This document shows positions 6,845 to 63,543 of a stretch of DNA of 64,000 bases, one piece after another. The position numbers and the translations under genes were made by a program. The notes under the pieces were generated by a model. The model did not search any database. It had not been told where the DNA came from and saw nothing but the letters and a program-made list of their open reading frames with translations. The first letter of the stretch is position 1. Every line of letters begins with the position of its first letter. The stretch spans positions 88,784,001 to 88,848,000 of the forward strand of contig NC_042999.1 of assembly GCF_006345805.1 (NCBI RefSeq). Reading direction: 5' to 3'. The DNA comes from Octopus sinensis. Taxonomy: Eukaryota.

Positions 6845-9650
6845 TTGACCATTCTTGGGTCTAACCATTTCTCATCTAGAGGGTGCAGCCTTTATAGTGT
6901 TCTTATTGTTGGTACTGTTCATACCATTCACACCCATGCATCCAGCTCTTCCTTACTCAATCTTCTCCAAAAAGGTGCACCCAAAGACAACTATCAGCAT
7001 ATTTTTGTGTTGGCTAAGGCAACAAAACTTCAATATCCCCTTAGTATTACCATTTCAAACTGTTATAAATTACTGGCATAATTTTCACTAAAAGCCTATC
7101 ATCCAAGTGTTTTTGGAAGGTCTATTAAATCCACTTCATTCAGTACCTCCCAATCCTTTTTTTATAAGTCAGAGTTATCAGCATTCCAATAGTGACCATA
7201 TTGTTCTGCCTCATCTCTGTAAAATCTATGACACTGTCCTGTGGAAAGGACTCTGCTTCATTCATTTAAGCTGCCTTCTGTTGAAGGTTATCGTTTTTTG
7301 GGATGGATTTTCTCCCATATTTTGTCTTTTGCACCTTTTCTGACAATTTGGAAATCTTTCTTCGTTTCCATATCCTCTGCCTCATTACAAGACATGCCGC
7401 TGGTTATGACAGGAAGAAGGGCTGTGTGGTCAGTAGATTCTGAGACCAGGAACAAGGTGTATTCCTTCACCATCTTCAGAACTGTGAACTATGTTGCTCT
7501 AGACACTCGCACCTGTGGTTGGTGTCTCTACTATCATCCACCCAGTTTCTCTTCACCTTTTTCAGTTCTTCCAAGCAAAAGGTCTTCATGTGAGAACCTT
7601 TTTTTCCTGAAGAAGTGCTGCAATTAGTTTCCGCAAGTCTAGCAGCCAGTTTTTGTTCCTGCGCCATGAACCAAGCCAATTCCCTTTGTTTTTGTGCCTA
7701 TGATAGAGCCTGACTCAAATATGACCCTCCAGTTTTAGGAGCTGCTAAGATTTATATGTTTATTCTGTCTCCTCCTCACTCTGTATCATGCTTTACATTT
7801 CTGTACTAACCAGGTGTTTTCTTTTTTAAACAAAAAATGATAACAAGCCTGAGGTTAGTATTGTTGCTGATATTCCTAACCAATATATTCATATTCCTCT
7901 GTCCCTAATAGTGGGTGACAAGTATAGAGGTGTACCATGCCTATTTCTAGGATACACTTTTTATCCTAAAAACTAATACAAACCCACCCATAGTTCCTAA
8001 AATGATCAATTGAGAGAATTTTTGCCATTATTCCAATAGTTGCTTTGAAGTTAATTGGAATCCTCTGCTTTTTATTAACAGACATGGATAGACAATTGTG
8101 CATTGTACCTGCTGCTGAATATATTCTTTGGGCAAAGATATGTAACTTGGTCTTCCCATGTGGCATTGTTTTCCCAAATAGACTTGACATGTGGGTAAAA
8201 CTTATCCCATCCTGAAAGACATTAATACATTTATATGACAGACCACATTATTAAAAATACTCTTTACATAGTAGACCATATCATTTAAAATACTGTTTTG
8301 ATGGGGTTTAGGCATTTTGTGTTTCTCCCTTGACATATCTTTATGGGACAGAATGTTCTGTTCACGTGAGGCAGCAGGAGTGGCATGTCAAATTATTTTG
8401 CTTATTTTGTTTTAAGAAGTCATGTTTATATAAATAGATAAATAAATAAAAAATAACAAAAAATAGTATCAAGACAAACATAAAAAAATGACAAACTTCT
8501 AAAGTTTGCCACAAGTTATGGAAGATCCCATACCATTTTTAAGACTCTTTACTTGTAAAACCATCAAAAATTTTGAAAATAATCCTTTCATTTACACCTG
8601 ATAAAATCCTAAATTATCAAAATATCATATAAATATCTTGTTTCCCCATGGTTTTCATTTCCTGTAACACAAGGGTCCACACTCTCATATAAAAGGTATT
8701 ACAATGAAGCAATCAAAGGGATGCTTTTTCCAATAATCTTTTCTAATTTACTCCTTATCCGTCTTTCTCTCTCACTCCCCTTCTCCCACCAGTCACTCTC
8801 TAGTTTTTTCCTGTAATCATTTATTTTCTAAATGCTATTGTTTTAGCTTTTTTCAGCATTTTCAAAGTCCTTCATCACTGATTGTTGACCCTGCCCTTGT
8901 CAATACCCTGTAATTCACTAAACCAATCACTGTGTGTTGAGAAAGATATGTCCAATTTCCCGTAACTAGTCCTCTGTCTATATATCCTCTCTAGATCAAA
9001 TCATGCAGATTACAAGTCTGTGGTCTGTGTTATCTACTGGCAGAAAATGCAAACATTCTACATTATTTTGATCTATTGACCTTATGCATTTGTTCCATGT
9101 ACAAACTGAAGTATTCAGAATATCCAGTTGGTGTTTGTCAAACAGTAAGAAACTGTGAGTAGCTTTGGGAGATTTTTACAACTCTCTCACTTATTGCATA
9201 CTTCTACACAATCAAAGCATGTATCTGATAAGCCATTTTAGTCTCCACTAGTACTAAAGAGCAAAATGTTCTGAAAACATTTATAAATGCCAGAATAAAT
9301 CCAGCCACTCTACTCTAGTTGGGAAATAAACAACCTCTAGTCTAAAAATACTACCTTCATAACACATCCAGGATCACCAACTTATAGTCTAGGAAGATCA
9401 TTTGTATCTTAAGATCCAGTTTTTACCAGGAATAACACTGGCCAATCTAACACCTGATTCCAGAAAACCATAGAATCTATATATCTCATTGTTTGGATGT
9501 ATATGCTATGGCAATCATGATTCTGCTGATGGTTGATGTATCCATGTCTACTGACTTGAGGTTCATTGAACAAGCCACCTTGCTTCCAAGCTCTGAGTAT
9601 GAGGATATTAATCAGAAAGAGATTGGGGTAACTTATTTTGGTCTTGGAAA
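6845..9650 (-). mobile_element. Highly degenerate L1/Tx1-like LINE ORF2 (endonuclease to C-terminus)
   Basis: Minus-strand fragments resemble APE endonuclease (..NTDHRLVIC near 9030; SLVLV..G(D) near 9250) with RT/C-terminal remnants downstream; many stops and frameshifts. Confidence 0.5.
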
Positions 9651-10544
9651 AGCCTGCTAATCTGGTCTTTTCAGTGAGCAAAGGTTCCTTGGAAGGTCCT
9701 TTCAGAATGTTCTTGTCTACAAGTATTTTTAAGTGATCTACAGTCAGAATTGAACTTAACATTCAGTGTATCTTGAGCTTGAGTTTACATTCTATTTGTA
9801 TTTTTTAGATCCTTTTTCCATCTAAGCTTCAACACTATGTTGTTACCATTTGCAAAAGTGATGTTGATGAGGTGCAGTTCTTGTGAGTTTAAGTACTGAT
9901 GTTGTTTTTGTTGTTTCTCTTGTTTTTTTTGCTGCAATTGTTGTGATTCTGGATTTTCTTGCTGCTTGTTTCACTTGTTGATGTGGTTGTAGGTTTGGTT
10001 CCTGTTGTAACAGTACTCTTTAGTTTAGTTGTTGATAGTGCCAGGCTTTTTAATGGGCTTTCTATTGCTTTGCTGATCTTTCAAGGGTTTGAGATTGCCT
10101 CTTTGATTATATTTCCATTTCCCTGTTTCTCAGAACAACAATGACAAATGTTGATGGGCTTGTTTTAAGCTTTTCACATGACAAGATCTTGAAGTCAGAG
10201 AAGCTTGAAGTTCCATTTCCCTGTTCCCCTGAACAACAAAGATAAATACTGATGGTCTTGTTTTAAGCTTTTCACATGACAAGGTTTTGGGTCAGAGAAG
10301 CTTGAAGTAAAGAGAAGAGGTATAAATGAATATGTGAATGTGTATTTGTGCTTTGTTGACCTTACAAGAAAGGAGACAAGGAGTTTCTTTTTTACTGTAA
10401 CAGTATCAGTGAAATTATTTTTCCGGGCTGTGGTATTGATCTCTGCTATTACAAGGAAAAAATAATGTCTCCTGATTAAATAATCAGTCCCAACAGGCAA
10501 TAATATATCTTTGAAAGGAATGTAGAAATTATCCAAATACAATT

Positions 10545-38850: not shown

Positions 38851-41064
38851 GTGCAACACAAGTTAACACTATAAAAGCTTTGTGAGAAAGCAAAGGAAGA
38901 TACCAAATAGCATATGATTTTGTAGTATCATTGTTTTATTATAGAAGTGTTGCCTACATTTTGCATGAGAATATCATGTGACTTAACTTGATAGTTACAT
39001 AATGAAGACAGTTTAACATGGCAGCCCTTTTCTGTGTCAAAAAGGTGTTCTTTAATGATATCTGAGGTGAGTAGGACAGAAAAAAAGAAGCAAGGAACAC
39101 CCAAAGATGAGAAAGAGAAAGCTGACTGCTATCAGTGAGCCAAGATCCAACAATCTTGTACAAAAACTGTTACCAAATATTTCAAATAAATCTGGGTTAT
39201 CAGTTATGTGTGAATCCATGTTTAAAGCAAGCAAAAAATAAAACAGGTATTTGAAGTGGGTAGGACAACTTCTACGATTGAAAACGACCACAAAACAAGA
39301 ATCTGTGCGACTTCAGTTTTACTTCATTATTCAGTTGATAAAGGCCAGCTGAAGTAAGGGGTTGTATGTAATTACTTTAATAAGCATTTTACTGTGGGAT
39401 TCTGTTAATAGTTTTGAACAAGCTTATCTGTCCAGGGAAATAGATACAATCTTCCTTGCAATAGTAATTTCTTCTAAATGATGACTTGAAAGATATGATA
39501 ATTTTTTAAGACTAAAGGGTGTTATTTAATAGAAATTGGATCACTATTTCTAGCAGGTCAAACAGCCTCTTATATGCTTCAGTGTTGATCTATTTGGTAA
39601 CGACCAGAAATGTAAGGTTGTTTCTGTACTCTTGTAAGTTAGTCAGTGAAATTATAATTTATTGTTGCTAACTTTACTGCTTTAATCATCATCCACTTTA
39701 GCACTACCTTCAAATGGCATTCAGTTACCTTTAGCAGAGCTCTCTCTCTCTGTTGCAAGCATTCAGGCCAGGTCTCAGGTTTAAGGATAACATTCTCTCT
39801 TCATCCACCAATCTAAGAGGCACTCAAAAAATCATGGATATTGTCCTTTTCCTTCAAATATTTTTTTAAAAATTGGGATCTTTTCAGTTTGAAGGCCAGA
39901 TTTTCTTAGTTAACTAAACAATTTGAAACTTCGTATATTGGTAGAATGTGTCAAAAGAAAACATAATTGTAAACCAAAATGAAAACGGAATTGTAATTTC
40001 TAAGTTTAACGTTGTTTAATAATTCGAATTTTAACCAATGATATTCTTTCTTTCGACCTCATATTATTTACTGCCTCTCAAAATATTGTTACTGTGACGT
40101 AAACAGCTATTTTGTGACGTACTTAACGTAAACATGTAAACAGACCTACAGATTCGTTTGTAACGTAAACATCCGCTCATCGTAAATAGCTAAATTCGCT
40201 TGGCATCGTACACAGCTTTTTCAGTTCCCTAGAATTATATTTCAAAGAAAATAAAAAGAAAAAGATTCATACGCATAAATATCCATCCTTAGACATCAGA
40301 AAATGAGTGTTTAAATTATTTTCCATTGTTTGCATTGCTTACACACACACACACATACATACATACATACACACATACTAAAATTACATCGTTGGAGCAG
40401 TAATTTATTTATGTATTTTTTGTTATACAATTTATTTTAAAGCTGAATCCCTATCCTGCCATTAACCCCTTTCTTATAAAATAGTTGAAGAATCTGGGGT
40501 GTAGGTATTGGGCCAGTATTGGAACTTTTAACTTCTTGCTCTCTATCTTATGATCTCCGAAATTTAAGAATCTTGTGTTAACTCGGCTCTTATTATTTAC
40601 TCTGACTCTGCCACCACCTCAATGCAAAGACTATCAATATCAGAATCATCTTCACAACCACCACTACAACCATTACTACAACCTCGAATGCCACCACCAC
40701 AACCATCTTCTGCAACCACAACCCCAAGATCAATACCAGCATCATATTCAAAATCACCAATTTCACCACCACTACACTCTGCAATGTCTTCAACTCTACC
40801 ATCCATGAGACATCCTAACATAATCAATGCTACTACTACTATCATCATCATTATCATCATCATCCACTGCCGCCACCACCACCACCACCACCTCTACAAA
40901 AACACCAACACTATAATTTCTGCCATCATACACATCCACTGTCACCACTACACCACCACTGCCATGATAACCACATCTACCACCTCCAACACCATTGCCA
41001 CCACTATCTATGAGACATCCTAAGTTAGAAACTACTTTCACTTTCTAGTTGCTCTTTGAGTTTA

Positions 41065-48297: not shown

Positions 48298-48521
48298 GGC
48301 GGCGAGCTGGCAGAAGCGTTAGCACGCCGGGCGAAATGCTTAGCAGTATTTCGTCTACGTTCTGAGTTCAAATTCCACCGAGGTCGACTTTGCCTTTCAT
48401 CCTCTCGGGGTCGATAAATAAAGTACCAGTTTCGCACTGGGTCGATGTAATCGACTTAATCCGTTTGTCTGTCCTTGTTTGTCCCCTCTATGTTTAGCCC
48501 CTTGTGGTAGCAAAAGAAATA
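48298..48521 (+). mobile_element. Near-intact tRNA-derived SINE (Meta/MESC-like body, tentative) with LINE-derived tail
   Basis: GGCGGCGAGCTGGCAGAA.CGTTAGC head, GAGTTCAAATTCC B-box, TTGCCTTTCATCCTCTCGGGGTCGATAAA..AAGTACCAG body, tail GTCCCCTCTATGTTTAGCCCCTTGTGG..AAAGAAATA. Confidence 0.85.
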
Positions 48522-49184
48522 TATATCATGTATATATGTGAATAGAAGCAGGCGTGACTGTGTTGTAAGCTGTTCCGGGTTCAGTCCAGCTGCGTGGCAC
48601 TTTGAGCGGGTGTTTCTACTATAGCCCTGGGTCGACTAAACCCTTGTGAGTAGATTTGGTTGACGGAATCTGAAAAAGCTTGTCATATATGTGTTTATCA
48701 ATATCTAGCAGAAGCAACAGAGTGACTCGGGGGGCGAGAGTTTCGTTCATTGACACTTGTCAAACTACACACAGACGCACACAACACACACACACACACA
48801 CACACACATACATATGCATGAGTGGCCGTGTGGTAAGTAGCCTGCTTACCAACTACATGGTTCTGGGTTCAGCCCCATTACGCGACGCCTTGGTCTTCTA
48901 CTAGAGCCTCAGGCCAACCAAAGCCTTGTGGGTGAATTTGGTAGACGGATACTGTGTGTGTGTTTGTGTTTGTCCCCCCGATGGTGGCATGTATATACAT
49001 AATATTATTGTTCTTTCTTGCGAAATATATAGAATTACTTTAAAGAAGTGTTCGGGTCGAACCAAGTAAAAGAATAAAAGAAAGAAAAGAAAGAATATAT
49101 ATATATATATATATGTACATTTTTACTTTTATATACATATTTATATTTATTGCATATCTTTTACTTTTTTATATTTATATATAA

Positions 49185-50470
49185 CTAGCAGAGATACCCG
49201 GCGTTACCCGATTACATTCAATTGGAGAATTAGATTTTTCTGTTATATCTTCTGTGATGAACTGGAATATCTATGTTTCGAATTTCATCAAAATTGCAGA
49301 TGAGGGTTATTTCAATCTTTACACACCCTAAAAAATTGTAATCGTGCCACATGTATCCCATAATCCTGATTTTTATGCGCATATTCCAAAATTCCAGTCT
49401 TATTTAACTTGTTAAAAAGATTTTGTTCCTGAAAAATGAAGGTCATGGAGCTCTAAAATGTGAGAGTTAAGGCCCCTGTTGGGGGTGGGCATCTTAATGT
49501 CAACCAGAGAAGTTGAATTGTTGAAAATCTTTTTAACTTGGGTCTTATATCTATTGTTTGAATTTCTTTGAAATAGGAAATATATGTTCACTGGGTTTGT
49601 AAAAGAGAGCAAAGCTACAGGAAATCAAAAGACGAATGATCACAATAAGCAGTCAGTTACCTTACCCTAGTCGTTACCACTCCTAATGTAGGATTCCTCA
49701 CCATCCAGGTGACAGGCACAGCCGTAAGATGCATCACAAATCTATAGCAATTTGAAGGGCGTGACCCAACTGAAATCAACATTAACAACTGTTTGACGTG
49801 AGAGCTAAGGAGAAATGAAAGTGTCACCTCTGTAGTTTGCAAATGACCACTATACTGATATGTAACTGGACAGAATAAATTTAAAATCTATAAATGTCTT
49901 CGAATAACCAGTCACTCATCTGGGAAGGCCTTGAAATCAATGTTACCATCTGGGGACTATGTGTGACCGAGTGATAATAAAAAGACTGAAAGGAGGTCTG
50001 CAATCAAATAAATTTTACTCTACACTTTGCAACTGAATCAGTGGAGGCAAAGATGCCTCTCATTTACTTGACAATTTATGCAGTGTGTATGTCAAAGCAA
50101 ACTGTTACACTGTTGTACCATTGAATTACAAATAATGCTCATCTTTTATGCTCGGGTAACCCTACAGCTTCCAAGAGCACAACTGTATTCATTTTTGCTT
50201 AGATAAAATGACAAAATTGTAGTTAAGTCCCCATGTAGGGGTCTTTCTAACTTTGTAAGATGAAATTTTATAGATATTACTTCATTTGTGTCTAATGTCT
50301 ATGGTTAAAATTTCATCAACAGCAAAAATATATGAATTGTCATGGGTGTTATGGCCCTTATACATAGAATATAATTTCCAAATTTCATAAAGATCCATTC
50401 AGTACTTTTGACCAAGTTTTGGATCATAAAAGAAATTACTAAAATTTGGGATTTAAGGCTCCCATTAGGG

Positions 50471-50503
<33 letters not shown>
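49185..50503 (-). mobile_element. Non-autonomous Helitron, ~1.3 kb
   Basis: Minus strand starts A|TCTATATA..TATAAAAC at 50503 and ends CGGGTAACGCCGGGTATCTCTGCTAG|T at 49185. Confidence 0.75.
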
Positions 50504-50796
50504 TACACACACACATGCACACATACAAAGATAAATTGATAGATACAACTGAGTGAGCAAACAAAAATATGAGACACAGCCTAGTGCTTTTTTATGTTGA
50601 TAAGCCTAGTACTTACTCTATTAGTTTGTTCTTGTGAAACCAGTAAGTTATGTGGATGTAAATAAGTGAACAGCAGTTGTGAAGCAGTGATGAGGGCGAA
50701 ACACAGGGACAAAGACACACACATACACTTACATATATACATACATATATATACGATTTATTTGTTACAGTTCCTGTCTACGAAATCCATATATAT

Positions 50797-51866
50797 TGTT
50801 GTTGGCATCCTTTTTGTCTCGGGAGACAATGGAGTTGCGCATAAAATAATCTTGTCCGGCTTTTACATTTCATGTCCTAATACATCTCTTGCTGTGGCTG
50901 TGTAGTCCTATCCGGGACAAACACTCCCTCTGGCAGGTGCCGTAAATGTAGCGAAGACTTTGCCTGACTGGTTTTAATGTCATAGTTTCTTGTTGACGTC
51001 TTTTCTTGTCTTTCCATTTCTCCTTTCTCACTGTGTCACTCCTTTGTGTTCCCTCTTTCACGGTACGTCGCCAATCTCCACGGTTGCTGGCAACTGCTTC
51101 CCAGTTGGTAATATTGATGTTGCAGACATTCATGTCCCTTTTGCAAACATCCTTGTATCGTAAGAACGGTCTTCCCACAGACCTAGTGCCCCTAGCAAGC
51201 TCTCCGTTGAGTATGTCCTTGGGGATTCTGCCATCTTCCATACGGCTAACATGTCCAAGCCATCTCATACGTCTTTGTGTGAAGAGTGCAAACATGCTTG
51301 GTATTCCTGCTTGCTTGAGGACATCTTTGTTGGGGACATGATTCTGCCATTTGATGCGATGGATTTTCCGGAGACAGCGCAGGTGAAAGATATTTAGGCG
51401 ACGTATGGCGTCGTATGGCGTGTGTATGGCGTCAAAGTCATACAGTAGAGTGCTAAGTACACATGCCTGGTAAATCTTCATTTTTGTGGTCTTGGTCAGC
51501 TTATTGTTGTCCCATGCGCGTTTGGTGAGTTGGGCCATCACAGCAGCTGCCTTGCCAATGCGTATATTGAGCTCAGCATCAAGGGATAGGTTGTAGGTGA
51601 CGGTAGAGCCAAGATAGGTAAACTTCTCCACCTCCTATACTCTGTGGTCTCCAATATGTATGTTTGGGATGTCCGATGTAGCCTGACACATGATGTTGGT
51701 CTTCTTGAGGCTGATAACTAAGCCAAAGTTGCCAAATGCTTGCTCAAAACACTTGATGAGCCTTCGTAGGGCTTCTTCTGTGTGTGATACCAGAGCGGCA
51801 TCATCAGCAAATAGCATCTCCTTGATCAGGATGCTTCTGAAATTTTGGTCTTGGCACGCAGACGCG
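50797..51866 (-). mobile_element. 5'-truncated RTE (BovB-like) LINE
   Basis: RLRAKTK..MLFADDAAL..KKT..FTYLGS..RWLGHVSRMEDGRIPKDIL.GEL..C..C..R.CLSRIGLHSH; 3' UTR CCATTGTCTCCCGAGAC..GATGCC with (AAC)n tail; one in-frame stop near 51635. Confidence 0.93.
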
Positions 51867-53524
51867 GTGAATTGACCCTCTAGTCATGGCGACTTACGCG
51901 GGGGTCACCGGGAAAAATAACGATTCGTCGATAATCATAAAGGAGGTTTTCTTTGAGAAGGATAAACTCAAAGAATATGAAAAGCTCTTCAAAAGGGAGG
52001 GTGATAGCGTGAAGCTAATCCCCCCCGCGAAAGCAAAAGAGGATAAAGAAAGCAAGACAGGGACATACAGAACCCAAGACAAAAATACGAAGAAACTGGC
52101 AAGAGTGGAGATAGTCGAAATTGAAAAATGTCTGGGAGACATAATGGGGAAAATAACCTACGTGAGTAGAGGCAAGAAATTTGGTACGGTGGAGGTGAGA
52201 TGTGCAACGGAAGAAATTGCGACCTCACTGGCTACCACCGTACTAAGAGCCGAAAAATTCACAATGTGGCCCTCATACAAGGGAAGAAGAGGGGTCCGGG
52301 TTAAAATCCCGAATATACCCCCAGAAGTGAAAACAGAATGGCTGGCAACAGCTATTCTAGGAGCAGCAGAAGAGGAAGTGGAGGTGGAATCTATTAAGGA
52401 GTCCAACGCGGTAAACTGGAGAGGATATGGGGTAGAATTGTGGTTGATGGCCACAAAAGAGGATATTGAAAGGTTTCCATACAGAATTGAAATTGAAGAG
52501 GAAAAAACCCTCAGCGTAATTGTAGAGGGGAGAAAACCAAACTGTTACTTGTGTGGGACAAGGGGGCACATTAAAAAAGAGTGCCCGTTATACGAATTCG
52601 TAGCGGAGTGCGAGCAGGAACTTGAAGAAAAGAAGAATACTGTAAATGAGAAAGAAAACATAGAAAAGGAAACAAAACAACAAGAGAAAGGAAATAATAA
52701 GTCAATGAAGGAAAAAGAAATAAAAGAAAAGAAAGAAATAGAACCAAAACAGAGTCAGGAAAAAAAAAAGGAAAAAGAAACAATAGGAAAAAAACAAGAG
52801 AGGGATCAGAATCAAACGAAAAGAAAAGACGGCACACAAAAGGAAAAAGAAAAGGAACATAAAACACGAGAGAAAGAGAGAACAGAGAAAGAACCAAAAA
52901 GACAAGAGAAGGAAGGAGAAAGAAAAGAAGGCAAAAAGAGAGAAAGAGAGAAACAAAGAGAGGAGAACAAGGAAGAAATAAGCCCGAAAAGGAAAATGAA
53001 GGAAAACGTAGGACGGAAACAAGATTACTATTACTACAAGTTAGTAACCTTCCATTTCTGCCCTGAAATGAAAGACTTGACATGTAAAACGGAGGGACAT
53101 ATATGGGTCAACAGGATGACCGATCGGTGGCAGGAGACTGCTCTAATCCCCGAAGAAAGAGTCGCTGAGTTCCTCAGAGCTGCCGGAGAGAGTGTAATAT
53201 TTTACACGAAGGTTCGAATGAGAGAGCGGCTGCCTGAGGGCTCAGTGATAGACTTCAGAGAAGTGGAAACTATGATAGAATACGTATAGAATTGTGAGAA
53301 GAAAAAAAAAAGAGAAAAAAGAAAATTTTGTGAAATATATGTGACGAAAATGTAACCTCTCGATTCCGGGGATCGAGTGGGCATTTACATCTCATTGTAA
53401 ATATTCTTTCATATGTCATTTTTTACTTTTATTTTTTCCTTTTCTTGTCATTCGCTTTCTTATTTTAAGTTCCCCGATTGTATTGTCCCATCTATGTTCG
53501 CCCCTAGTGGGTAATAAAGAAATA
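51867..53524 (+). mobile_element. ORF1-only (HAL1-like) non-autonomous retroposon
   Basis: ORF1 is followed by only ~235 bp, ending in GTCCCATCTATGTTCGCCCCTAGTGGGTAATAAAGAAATA; no ORF2. Confidence 0.7.
51886..53289 (+). CDS. Intact 467-aa retroposon ORF1/gag-like nucleic-acid-binding protein (RRM-like region, CCHC knuckle, K/E-rich linker, C-terminal domain)
   Basis: Uninterrupted ORF; N-terminal TYAGV (SYA..-type); CYLCGTRGHIKKEC = C-X2-C-X4-H-X4-C; architecture of L1/Tx1-type ORF1. Confidence 0.85.
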   Translation: MATYAGVTGKNNDSSIIIKEVFFEKDKLKEYEKLFKREGDSVKLIPPAKAKEDKESKTGTYRTQDKNTKKLARVEIVEIEKCLGDIMGKITYVSRGKKFGTVEVRCATEEIATSLATTVLRAEKFTMWPSYKGRRGVRVKIPNIPPEVKTEWLATAILGAAEEEVEVESIKESNAVNWRGYGVELWLMATKEDIERFPYRIEIEEEKTLSVIVEGRKPNCYLCGTRGHIKKECPLYEFVAECEQELEEKKNTVNEKENIEKETKQQEKGNNKSMKEKEIKEKKEIEPKQSQEKKKEKETIGKKQERDQNQTKRKDGTQKEKEKEHKTREKERTEKEPKRQEKEGERKEGKKREREKQREENKEEISPKRKMKENVGRKQDYYYYKLVTFHFCPEMKDLTCKTEGHIWVNRMTDRWQETALIPEERVAEFLRAAGESVIFYTKVRMRERLPEGSVIDFREVETMIEYV

Positions 53525-53772
53525 CCGATAGGATGTTACTTATTCATCGATACTCAAAAACTGAACTTTCACCAACTGAATACTCGTCATGTAGTGCCTT
53601 ACTGCTTTCTGCTGGATTTTACCTCGAGAAAGGAACCCTGAGGAAGGAGGGCTGAATTTCGAATACTTCGTACAACAAACGGCTGCAGGTTAGGAAAAAA
53701 AATTTAATCGCCTCTTTCAATTTAGGTTTTCATTTTTCATGTTTTTATTTGTATTTCATTGTTATGTTTATA

Positions 53773-55382: not shown

Positions 55383-57194
55383 TTTACATACCTATATACG
55401 ATTTGCATATAGTTACATACCTATATACAATTTGCATATATTTACATACCTATATGAAATTTGCATATATTTACGTACCTATATAAAATTTGCATATATT
55501 TACATACCTATATACAATTTGCATATATTTACATACCTATATACAATTTGCATATATTTACGTACCTATATACAATTTGCATATATTTACGTACCTATAT
55601 ACAATTTGCATATATTTACATACCTATATACAATTTGCATATATTTACATACCTATATACAATTTGCATATATTTACATACCTATATATATGCAAATTGT
55701 ATATAGGTCTGTAAATATATGCAAATTGTATATAGGTGTGTAAATATATACAAATTGCATATAGGTGTGTAAGTATATGCAAATTGTATATAGGTGTGTA
55801 AATATATGCAAATTGTATATAGGTGTGTAAATATATACAAACTGTATATATGTATGTAAATATATACAAACCGTATATATGCATGTAAATATATACAAAC
55901 CGTATATATGCATGTAAATATATACAAATCGTATATATGCATGTAAATATATACAAATTATATATATGCATACAAATATATACAAATTATATATATGCAT
56001 ACAAATTATATATGTGTATATATGTATAAAAATTATATATATGTATATAAATGTATACAAATTATATATATGTATATAAACGTATACAAATTATATACAT
56101 GTATATAAACGTACACAAATTATATATATGTATATAAACGTATACAAATTTTATATTTGTATATAAATATATACAAAATATATATAATTATATATATAAT
56201 TTGTATATATTTATACACATATATATAAATATATACAAATTATATATATGTATATAAATATATACAAATTATATATATATATGTATATAAATATATACAA
56301 AATATATATTTGTATATATATATGTACAAATTATATATATGTATATGAATATATACAAATTATATATATGTATATGAATATATACAAATTATATATGTAT
56401 ATGAATATATACAAAATATATATATGTATATGAATATATACAAATTATATATGTATATAATATATACAAATTATATATATGTATATAACTAATACAAATT
56501 ATATATATATGTATATAATATATACAAATTATATATATGTATACAAATATATACAAATTATATTTATGCATACAAATAATACAAATTATATATATGTATA
56601 TAAATATATACAAAATATATATATGTATATAAATATATACAAATTATATATATGTACATAAATATATACAAATTAAATATATGTATACAAATTATATATA
56701 TGTATACAAATATATACAAATTATATATATGTATACAAATATATACAAATTATATATATGTATACAAATATATACAATTATATATATGTATACAAATATA
56801 TACAAATTATATATATGTATACAATTTATATATATGTATATAAATATATAAAAATGATATATATGTATATAAATATATACAAATTATATATATGTATATA
56901 AATGTATACAAATTATATATATGTATAGAAACGTATACAAATTATATATATGTATATAAACGTATACAAATTATATATATGTATATAAATGTATACAAAT
57001 TATATATATGTATATAAATGTATACAAATTATATATATGTATATAAATGTATAAAAATTATATATGTATATAAATGTATACAAATTATATATATTTATAT
57101 ATATATAAATGTATACAAATTATATATATTTTATAGTATATACATATATATATACATATTATATATATATATCTATATAAATGTATATTTATAT

Positions 57195-57242
<48 letters not shown>

Positions 57243-57250
57243 AATGTATA
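55383..57250. repeat. 29-bp minisatellite that inverts orientation at ~55686, then degrades into AT-rich variants
   Basis: TTTACATACCTATATACAATTTGCATATA about 10 times, then TATATGCAAATTGTATATAGGTGTGTAAA units, then TATATACAAATTATATATATGTATATAAA-type units. Confidence 0.92.
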
Positions 57251-58132
57251 CAATGTATACACTGTCCAACCCTTGCTACCACGGAAAACGGACGTTAAAC
57301 GATGATGATGATGATGATTCTCCGTATTTGTTTCTCTCTCCGTTCTCTCTCACTTTCCCACTCTCTTAGTTTTCTTATCTCTCGACTCTTCCTCGCTTCT
57401 CTTACTCTCTATCTTATCTATCTCTCCCATTTATAAACAACAGAAGATCTGAGTAAGTTGAGAAATAAAATATTTAGAAAGATCAATCAGAAATATGAGG
57501 CAGTGATAATGGAAAAGTCTGCTTCAAGGCAGACAGAAAAATGCTAACATTTAAAAGGGACAGACGGACTTGCGAGCTGACGAAAAATAATAAAATATTG
57601 GAAACCAAAGTTTTAAGGGATAGAATCTGAGGATAGTAGAGTCACCATGGCTGGCATTTCTTAACGACGGACAGCAACGTAGTGACAGTTTAACGACTGG
57701 CGTAAAATTTTCAACTTGATGTAAAAGAAAATTCGTAAACACCAAGTTTTGAAGTGATTCTTTCTCACGACAGTAGACTCACCATGGACTCTTTATCATG
57801 GACTCTTTATCATAGACGGCAACACATTGACGATTAAAAGGCTGGCGCAAATTTTTTAGCTTGATGTAACAGAGAATTCCTAAACACCCGCTCCTTTAAA
57901 TTTTAATCCCATTCCAGCCCCATTTAGACCCCTTTTCACATTTTGGTTAACATAACCCGATTTCATTCGGGTCTCCTGGGGCCGCATTTTATAAGATGAG
58001 GAATTTTGTCCTAGAGGTGACGCCTTTCATTTGAGGAAAAAAATAGTTGTCATGCAAACTTGCCAGCACTTTTAACATAGGTATGCATATTTTCAGCTGA
58101 ATCGACCGACTACGTAATGCACACATTATATA

Positions 58133-60193: not shown

Positions 60194-61587
60194 ATAGGGA
60201 CGACCCATTCAGACTGGTCATCCGTTTTGCTAGAAGATCACCAATGCTACACCACTGGTTTTCAGTTCATATTAATCAAATTAATATTCACAAGAAGAAG
60301 GACTATTCATTATAATACATCAGTTCCATCGGACAACTGCACACACATTTGCCATTTTACACATGTATGTAAACAAATTCCTTTCTTTTAGAATTTCAAT
60401 TCATTTACTTTTTCAATTCATACAAAGTTTTTTAGGACGAATATAACATCTAAAGTTATCTCTAAGAAGCAGAAAGATCGCCCAAAAGTGTATATAGATA
60501 TTTAAATGTATTTATATATTCATCTATACACACATGTATGTATAACGTGTGTGTATATATTTCCATAGAGGTAACCATTCACTCCGCACAAAGTTTTTTA
60601 GGACGAAAATAACATCTAAAGTTATCTCTAAGTAGCAGTCGCCCAAAAGTGTATATAGACACACACATGTATGTATAATGTGTGTGTATATATTTCCATA
60701 GAGGTAACCATTCACTCCATACAAAGTTTTTTAGGACGAAAATCTTTATATATAAAAGAAAGGTTGTGTGTCTGTCTACTCCGATTTAGATTCCTAACTA
60801 CTCCCACATTTTGCGATGCAGTTTAACCAAAACCGAGTATCTTATAGTCGTGATTCATATCGAGCTCTTCTGGGTATTAGCGCGCGTCTACGATGAGTCT
60901 ACGATTTTACAAATAATTTACCATCATTTTTTCCCATTTTAATGCATTTTTTAAAATTAAGGGAAGTAACTCTCAAACTTCACACCAATATGCGTGCTCA
61001 TATGCGACGTAATATCACATCAGCAGCATTTCCTCACACCCTCATTGCACTTGGCGAAGCCAAAATACCAGGGTATGAAAATGGTAATATTGCCATCGAT
61101 TCCATTTGTACCATTGTTAAGACGCCTCCTGATCTCAGAGATGCAGTGTTCCCAGATCTACAAGCTAATTATCAGAATATGGATTGGATTGGCAAAAAGG
61201 CTATACTGGCCCCGAGGAATAAAACTGTTCACCATATTAATGATGAAATGCTAAAACTCATTCCTGGGGAAGTCTATGTATATCAGTCTATCGATACAAC
61301 TCCTGACCCAGAGGACGTCATCAACTATCCAATAGAGGTACTCAATTCCTTTGAGCACCCCGGACTACCACCACACATTCTCAAACTTAAAGTTGGTGCC
61401 CCTATAATGCTCATCAGAAATTTGGTTCCCCCAAAACAATGCAATGGCACACGTTTGATCGTTAAGTCCTTATCTCCCAGCGTAAACTTATATCAATATT
61501 TGCCTGAATAATCATCATCATTCAGTGCAATCATTAACAGTACTTTCAAGTAATTCATCCCCGAGCAACGCCGGGCAATTCTGCTAG
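59487..61587 (+). mobile_element. Composite Helitron unit 1 (outer TCTTATTATAAAAG 5' end, internal TCTTTATATATAAAAG 5' end at 60743, helicase fragment, CTAG)
   Basis: TC start, subterminal CCCCGAGCAACGCCGGG, CTAG at 61584-61587; joined directly to unit 2. Confidence 0.88.
60960..61490 (+). pseudogene. Helitron RepHel PIF1-family helicase C-terminal fragment
   Basis: KLHTNMR..AILAPRN..V..IN..ML..PGE..Y.SIDT..YPIEVLNS..PGLPPH.LKLKVGAPIMLIRNL.P..CNGTRL. Confidence 0.92.
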
Positions 61588-63543
61588 TCTTATTATAAAA
61601 GGCAGATTTTATCTGCCTCCCTTTGTCTCTTATAGAAATCTACAATATAGGATTTCTTCAATTACAATTTACCTAGCATTTTTAAGAGTAGAATGCATCG
61701 GGTCATGCCAGGTCCAGTTTTTAAAATTTCAACCCCAATTAAGCAAAATTTATAGAAAACTCACATTGTGGTGTGTAAGTCAAGTGCTTTTCTTATTGTG
61801 GGCTAGAGCACACGCACACACACACAAAAACGGAGCGATCTGATTCACTCACGCTATCACTCTAATTTCTACTCCTTTCTCTTTGCAAGTGTGCAACGAT
61901 TAAAGTGAAACTATTTCTATAAAACGAGAGAAGTGTACCTTAAACCACTACTAAAAAAAAAACACAGCAAACAGAAACAAATAAATACATAACGATTTAC
62001 TCCTCACACAATTTCTTCAATTAGAGTTTACCCATGATTTTTCAAAGTACTTTCATTGGGTCATGCCATACAAATTTTCTTTCAATTTTACCCCCAATTA
62101 AGACAAAATTCGAGAAAACTCAATATTTTAACATTTCACTCTGCATATTACTCCCACTTCCTCTTTACACACATAGACACGCAAATATATAAATAAAATT
62201 GTGAGCTATATAAATAAAATTGTGTGTGTGTGTGTGTGTGTGCGTGTGAGTGTGTGTGTGTGTGCGTCTGTGTGTGCGTCTGTGTGTGCGTCTGTGTGTG
62301 TGTGAGGGTGCGTGTGTGTCTGTGTGTGTGTGTGTGAGTGTGTGACAGGGATGAGCAAGTCAAACTGGTCATCCTTTTTGCTAGATCACCTAACATCTAA
62401 AGTTATCTCTAAGTAGCAGTCGCCCAAAAGTGTATATAGACACACACATGTATGTATAATGTGTGTGTATATATTTCCATAGAGGTAACCATTCACTCCA
62501 TACAAAGTTATTTAGGACGAATTGGACGAAAATAAGATCTAAAGTATATCCATGTAGCAGAAAGATCGCCCAAAAGTGTATATAGATATTAAAATATTTA
62601 TATATTCATCTATATACACATGTATGTATAATGTGTGTGTATATATTTCCATAGAGGTAACCATTCACTCCGCACAAAGTTTTTTAGGACGGACGAAAAT
62701 CTTTATATATAAAAGAAAGGTTGTGTGTCTGTCTACTCCGATTTAGATTCCTAACTACTCCCACATTTTGCGATGCAGTTTAACCAAAACCGGGTATCTT
62801 ATAGTCGTGATTCACATCGAGCCCTTCTGGGTATTAGCGCGCGTCTATGATGAGTCTACGATTTTAAAAATAATTTACCATCATTTTTTCCATTTTAATG
62901 CATATTTTTTTAAATAAAGGGAAGTAACATTCAAACTTCACACCAATATGCGTGCTCATATGCGACGTAATATCACATCAGCAGCATTTCCTCACACCCT
63001 CCTTGCACTTGGCGAAGCCAAAATACCAGGGTATGAAAATGGTAATATTGCCATCGATTCCATTTGTACCATTGTTAAGACGCCTCCTGATCTCAGAGAT
63101 GCAGTGTTCCCAGATCTACAAGCTAATTATCAGAATATGGATTGGATTGGCAAAAAGGCTATACTGGCCCCGAGGAATAAAACTGTTCACCATATTAATG
63201 ATGAAATGCTAAAACTCATTCCTGGGGAAGTCTATGTATATCAGTCTATCGATACAACTCCTGACCCAGAGGACGTCATCAACTATCCAATAGAGGTACT
63301 CAATTCTTTTGAGCACCCCGGACTACCACCACACTTTCTCAAACTTAAGTTGGTGCCCCTATAATGCTCATCAGAAATTTGGTTCCCCCAAAACAATGCA
63401 ATGGCACACGTTTGATCGTTAAGTCCTTATCTCCCAGTGTAAACTTATATCAATATTTGCCTGAATAATCATCATAATTCAGTGCAATCATTAACAGTAC
63501 TTTCAAGCAATTCATCCCCGAGCAACGCCGGGCAATTCTGCTA

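Follow-up and report, generated by a model that had tools for sequence, protein, structure and literature searches.

The 64,000-nt stretch of Octopus sinensis DNA analysed here (contig NC_042999.1; the window) carries an ORF1-type gene on its forward strand at 51886..53289, an uninterrupted ORF of 467 amino acids. It is composed of an RNA-binding-type N-half (aa 1-218), a CCHC knuckle (aa 219-234; zf-CCHC, E 1.4e-4, passing the Pfam cut-off), a K/E-rich linker (about aa 241-374) and a C-terminal domain (aa 375-467; 53008..53286) for which AlphaFold2 predicts a ferredoxin-like fold. The ORF is preceded by the last 20 nt of a 5' UTR (51866..51885), other copies matching from position 51866 onward, and followed by 234 nt from stop to end (53290-53523), in which the sequence and the spacing between stop and tail core delimit a pyrimidine-rich, family-specific 3' UTR (53290..53474) and a tail of about 50 nt (53475..53523), the latter being common to an autonomous LINE, here called LINE1, and more loosely to other half-LINEs, other LINEs and a SINE. 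The tail ends in AAGAAAT, a rare variant present at 3 of 111 3' ends of the family, AAAAT being the ending at 106 of them, and no poly(A) tract is found at the tail. A stable tail hairpin was considered and rejected, with z values of -1.1 to +0.5 being no better than those of shuffles. The ORF with its knuckle, the short UTR and the tail that an earlier note had read from the letters alone are confirmed; its description of the element as intact holds for the ORF but not for the 5' side, where a head of about 115 nt carried by other family copies has been lost and the element directly abuts an RTE-like fragment. Among the open reading frames of the window, no ORF2 was found downstream of the 467-aa ORF. 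The ten protein relatives that were found all come from Octopus. In three runs that are not recorded as RNA, contigs span the element and extend hardly at all into the flank next to it, a weak hint of expression.

We assign the window copy to a family of ORF1-only retroposons, family A. A DNA search yielded 39 further near-full-length copies of 86-98% identity among the best 40 of 1538 candidates, and the C-terminal domain as query gave 150 matches, the best 150 of 416 candidates. Around the matches to the element DNA and to the C-terminal domain we fetched 80 stretches of ten kb; this sample represents the best-scoring matches and no random draw, with most unplaced contigs left out. Since copies extend about 115 nt further 5' than the window copy, the family A unit is about 1.78 kb long. 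The ORF1-UTR-tail layout predicted by the earlier note recurs in more than 100 copies. In 73 of 77 cases, stop and tail core lie 197-229 nt apart; the remaining four comprise one longer UTR, one chimera with a different half-LINE and two tails that have degenerated. An ORF2 between ORF1 and tail, which would speak against the note's reading, is absent from all 77 cases, outliers included. Being multicopy and devoid of ORF2, the element can be classified, as proposed, as a non-autonomous, ORF1-only retroposon of HAL1 type. HAL1 in the strict sense, i.e. derived from mammalian L1, does not apply, the relatives all being Octopus proteins and the partner an octopus LINE.

The ORF copies bear the signature of purifying selection. 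Within aa 1-240, changes common to at least five of the 101 ORF copies comprise 58 synonymous and 16 non-synonymous ones (pN/pS 0.08), and the comparison of family A with its sister family B gives a dN/dS of 0.11, in agreement with the expected dN/dS below 1 among copies. Singleton changes in the same region of these 101 copies show a pN/pS of 0.63, and the C-terminal domain, with a pN/pS of 0.51, is under far weaker constraint than the N-half. The ORF is open from end to end in 16 of 101 copies, many breaks being indels that reflect decay or assembly error. Family A is a young, recently active half-LINE.

Its ORF1 is homologous to the ORF1 proteins of LINE1 and of a second LINE family, LINE2 (34-36% identity over about 210-230 aa, E 1e-37 to 1e-42), the identity to LINE1 being confined to the N-half. 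LINE1 is a LINE of about 5.1 kb, the ORF2 of which contains endonuclease, RT and zf-RVT domains, corresponding to the APE, RT and zinc-binding layout of the L1 group; its best solved-structure match is human L1 ORF2p (E 9e-57), and 19 of the best 150 ORF2 matches lie in open frames of at least 1128 aa. We use Tx1-like as a working label for LINE1, based on target specificity and on the ORF1 type (a ZCCHC3-like lead at 0.89). The tail of the window copy is identical to that of LINE1 in 41 of 42 nt, an alignment with 48 of 49 identical nt also being obtained, and the tails of family A and LINE1 align with scores of 71-93; the genome thus contains, as anticipated by the earlier note, an autonomous LINE that shares the tail, and the half-LINE/LINE1 pair is well supported. 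LINE1 need not be the only RT donor, because at least two further LINE families, LINE2 and LINE3, carry related tails; the same tail core occurs in three LINE families, six half-LINE families and the SINE. The two further autonomous LINE families whose tails are related, and which could serve the SINE and half-LINE families D-F as donors, were noticed at L105:3260-8722 and at L107 (oriented copies), and 3' parts of LINE1 occur in tandem with a period of about 3.57 kb at G000:C9:76607515-76624048.

In an unrooted tree built from 13 real copies, families A, B and C of the half-LINEs group on one branch (100/100) and families D, E and F on another, both far from LINE1, and the 5' UTRs of family A and LINE1 gave no alignment. 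Together with the low ORF1 identity, the distant branches and unaligned 5' UTRs lead us to infer that families A-F are old ORF1-only lineages which kept or re-acquired the tail, rather than recent deletions. An intact ORF under purifying selection would also be expected if a single internal deletion in a LINE had produced the element, or if the host had domesticated it as a gene; more than 100 copies of the same layout with target duplications, an ORF1 so distant from the LINE ORF1s and a branch shared with B and C already refute this explanation, to which we assign practically no probability. Families D-F represent a second group of ORF1-only elements of about 1.7 kb with AAGAAAT tails, found at loci L049, L085, L088 and L124.

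For the C-terminal domain, which the earlier note had not recognised and had proposed for structure prediction, the AlphaFold2 model shows a beta-alpha-beta-beta-alpha-beta order with a short extension (pLDDT 78). The C-terminal domain of LINE1 ORF1 is modelled with the same element order (pLDDT 84), and both models match the same generic ferredoxin-like folds with Z 5-7 (the element's best being 6.8), an arrangement that is common. The domain matches no Pfam family, no solved structure by sequence, no usable Atlas entry and, at E<=0.001, no Foldseek entry. Profile comparisons with the C-terminal domains of LINE1 and of families D/E give probabilities of 0.1-2.8%, leaving homology unsupported at the sequence level. 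Probably it is an ORF1 domain that was inherited and evolves fast.

The 3' ends of family A define where its members land. Out of 111 distinct ends, 83 abut another family member in head-to-tail trains (A in 36, LINE1 in 30, family B in 13, families D-F in 3 and LINE2 in 1), 14 abut a fixed target repeat (target 1 in 11, target 2 in 3) and 14 lie in unique DNA as solo copies. The solo targets begin with AC in all 14 cases and with ACATG in six. Target duplications of 15-16 bp flank seven of these 14 copies (16 bp at loci L007, L092, L100, L115, L131 and L132, 15 bp at L134), two have 10-11 bp and five no clear duplication; three of the seven copies with 15-16-bp duplications are 5'-truncated. 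Target duplication, 5' truncation and a fixed 3' end are the marks of target-primed retrotransposition, and the target site duplications foreseen in the earlier note are thereby documented. In two of the 101 ORF copies, A>G changes account for 107 of 118 and 154 of 165 differences, the pattern expected from an edited RNA intermediate, and movement through an RNA copy is likely. A massive sense-strand A>G excess, such as ADAR-edited RNA would leave on becoming fixed in the genome, was observed at loci L103 and L120, and a similar excess was seen by eye at loci L119, L098 and L089.

Target 1 is a non-autonomous element of about 1 kb with Helitron-type ends. Helitrons are defined by a 5' TC after A and by a 3' hairpin and CTAG before T, with no target duplication, and target 1 conforms to this: of 10 empty copies, 7 show the 5' end and 9 the 3' end. 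Of the 80 ten-kb stretches, 36 hold trains that finish on the 3' half of the Helitron and 4 hold trains that finish on target 2, with a few mutual duplicates among them. Exact junction patterns count 150 empty and 78 filled Helitron sites; a one-base variant of the site is empty 66 times and filled 15 times, and a deletion variant of the Helitron provides 123 empty sites. The deletion variant is filled at the same spacing from an upstream purine tract with a differing downstream sequence, which provides a lead towards site recognition by sequence upstream of the cut; it is only a lead, as the fillers of this variant are older subfamilies, perhaps from few founders. Families D-F land at the target-1 Helitron site or up to about 30 nt upstream. 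We rejected the idea that read-through RNA overwrites the third base of the target, the one-base variant being commoner in empty (66/216) than in filled (15/93) sites (p 0.008, for patterns that differ in length). Nor did the targets match a known RNA gene or a hammerhead, Rfam returning only low-complexity rows below threshold.

Within trains, adjacent units have their first 12-16 nt in common, also where they belong to different families, and in solo copies a tag of this kind follows the new duplication. It thus seems that the element's head is a target duplication passed on from earlier insertions, by which the landing site would be regenerated. The idea that an inherited 5' tag guides the choice of site was set aside, since the third base agrees between a copy's own head and its target in 5 of 8 solo cases, which is uninformative. 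At loci L101 and L105 the junction with the upstream unit falls at an ACGT motif within the 5' UTR of the unit that follows, as would be expected had the upstream unit inserted into one already present. The composition of trains also bears on a model according to which whole trains are transcribed and reverse-transcribed as read-through units, with the half-LINE riding in cis with a downstream LINE. That LINE1 directly follows 30 of 111 element ends, often as the last unit of a train, and that the tail carries no poly(A) tract would agree with this; however, solo and 5'-truncated copies with duplications of their own end at the element's own tail, as do the 11 copies directly abutting the Helitron, making such read-through improbable.

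The window copy resides at target 2, a repeat in which family members are inserted at several positions within about 70 nt and the downstream half of which occupies 53524..53740 (+; 40 matches scored, the best 40 of 167 candidates). On the 5' side it meets a LINE fragment on the reverse strand (50870..51865, cut at 51865), which we label RTE-like from its protein. Both are part of a large block starting near 39,876, which we compared with six other places: all six other block copies match up to 51866 and then continue in the RTE fragment. In the block copy on C9, three A units stand about 2.5 kb further on, and the copy on C8 carries a B-B-A train, both having the same end junction as the window. 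The window copy is therefore likely the 3'-most unit at target 2, a deletion of about 2.5 kb having removed its head and anything upstream. The three AAGAAAT endings of family A are those of the window, C8 and C9 copies; the C8 ORF differs from the window ORF by 0.7%, and the C9 copy differs in the ORF and is identical in the UTR, which ties this ending to the site and indicates that recombination has occurred.

Several observations were made on the block itself. The composite runs from 39876 as far as 55385 or beyond (64000 in the copy on C9) and contains the RTE fragment, the SINE, Helitron-like and Mariner-like pieces and a satellite; it has one sharp left end, and the flanks differ in all six other copies examined, so that it is possibly a giant cargo-carrying mobile element. 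Its target-2 site (53524-53600, and loci L053-L070) is hypervariable among block copies, with short footprints and tail remnants of 17-40 nt, as if it had repeatedly been cut and repaired. A Helitron-like end and helicase-like ORF fragments lie at 49183-50505 (-) and 60942-63364, and a 29-bp satellite at 55383-57261 flips its orientation near 55690.

Another conceivable origin of trains lies mainly at the DNA level: a few founder insertions would have been copied as cargo of Helitrons or blocks and expanded by unequal crossing-over, the targeting being inherited. The distances between train copies are lower within than between trains (median 0.9% versus 4.4%), the nearest relative stands in the same train for 16 of 48 train copies, the window copy and the SINE lie in a block present at six other examined places, and the C9 and window copies look recombinant. 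Against this, families of very different age and order are mixed in trains, the nearest relative is found in another train in 32 of 48 cases, the outer flanks differ among filled Helitrons, two Helitron sequence variants and the deletion variant have each been filled, and block copies bear different inserts at different target-2 positions. As the main source of trains we consider the DNA-level process unlikely. The split of 32 to 16 together with the lower distance within trains indicates that fresh insertion and local duplication both act, part of the A-A repeats likely stemming from local duplication.

The SINE with a related tail (48298..48521, +) is a passenger of the same block, and its vicinity to the element in the window is explained by both riding in this one duplicated unit. 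Its end (48475-48521) is 79% identical to the element tail over 48 columns, with a score of 46 that none of the shuffles reaches (maxima 33 in 1000 SINE shuffles and 32 in 2000 UTR shuffles), so that the tail similarity on which the earlier note built is significant. The note had extended this to a LINE/SINE/half-LINE trio using one RT, of which the half-LINE and LINE1 pair stands and the SINE's share in the same RT is no more than possible, its tail being about equally near three LINE families (LINE1 43-53, LINE3 39-50, LINE2 30-46). Use of the LINE1 RT by the SINE would accord with tail scores far above chance, with those of 43-53 against LINE1 and with duplications of 12-13 bp at two SINE copies. 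On the other side, SINE copies end in AAGAAAT as do LINE2, LINE3 and half-LINE families D-F, unlike LINE1, with similar scores against the former, and the landing sites of 18 SINE insertions examined do not begin with ACNTG and include the SINE's own head and TA repeats. We lean slightly against a common RT; judged by the tail sequences, the SINE belongs to the same tail guild as the half-LINEs and LINEs. Tandem SINE arrays of about 184 bp occur at L046:820-4800 and 8550-9900, each SINE tail being followed by the SINE's own position of about 48. The SINE head was rejected as a known RNA gene or hammerhead, only low-complexity Rfam rows below threshold being returned.

Taken together, we favour with considerable confidence a model according to which family A is a young ORF1-only family using the endonuclease-RT of LINE1 via the shared tail of about 50 nt, with stacking into trains. 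The element's own ORF1p would bind its RNA in cis, which would account for the selection on ORF1. As the near-identity of the tails suggests, LINE1 ORF2p likely recognises the shared tail, a putative recognition signal; it would nick at the target and prime on the tail, each insertion duplicating about 16 nt of target in front of the newcomer. The transcript would carry a target tag of about 16 nt at its 5' end, and with the target duplicated and the tag inherited, the landing site would be renewed at every head and later insertions would stack 5', a growth order of trains based on few loci. A bolder version sees in the octopus an interstitial counterpart of Drosophila telomeres, in which a Helitron pad that renews itself is shared by several LINEs and no fewer than two ancient ORF1-only lineages, each insertion rebuilding the site from the inherited 16-nt tag, with upstream sequence partly setting the site and the fast-evolving C-terminal domain of ORF1p possibly serving as a tether; we regard this as a doubtful extension.

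HAL1, HeT-A and Ag-Sponge are described as non-autonomous LINEs with ORF1 present (PMC5786205, PMC5753468). Like family A, mammalian HAL1 elements are given there as non-autonomous members of the L1 group encoding ORF1p only, with several origins (PMC5753468, PMC5786205). In contrast to HAL1, the octopus element has as its partner a Tx1-like LINE that is target-specific and ends in a sequence tail in place of a poly(A) tract, the octopus ORF1 is only about 35% identical to that of its partner, and copies stack at fixed sites. HeT-A and other Drosophila telomeric elements are likewise reported as ORF1-only families in need of the ORF2 of other families, forming mixed head-to-tail arrays in which old ORF1-only lineages yield new ones (PMC13534243, PMC5786205); many ORF1-only lineages are stated to reside at Drosophila telomeres (PMC13534243). 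The same recent survey states that Jockey elements away from telomeres do not show repeated loss of ORF2 (PMC13534243). HeT-A belongs to the Jockey clade and to chromosome ends, whereas the octopus elements belong to the L1 group and occupy interstitial sites in a Helitron and another repeat with 16-bp duplications, with no evident host function. Tx1L of Xenopus inserts in a DNA transposon. Tx1-clade elements in general are described, as is LINE1 here, as APE-type LINEs that have a set insertion site within repeats of many copies, transposons among them (PMC4640811); the octopus system differs in its Helitron target, in its leaky specificity (14 of 111 ends in unique DNA) and in several ORF1-only satellite families sharing the site. 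For Octopus vulgaris, a table gives counts for 13 L1-Tx1 families, with 421 insertions that were active recently, and the underlying library may already hold these consensus families (PMC13282606). We found no description of this half-LINE system in the open-access literature.

As a summary, ORF1-only LINEs are already known, and the abundant cases of head-to-tail stacking are telomeric. The octopus displays the same ORF1-only economy at dispersed sites, where copies are young, partners are intact and empty targets number in the hundreds. ORFs of this kind are annotated as uncharacterised octopus genes, which calls for caution in the use of such annotations. The system makes it testable why a parasite keeps an ORF1p of its own, which features a tail of about 50 nt must have to be captured by an RT, and by what means the target of a site-specific LINE is regenerated.
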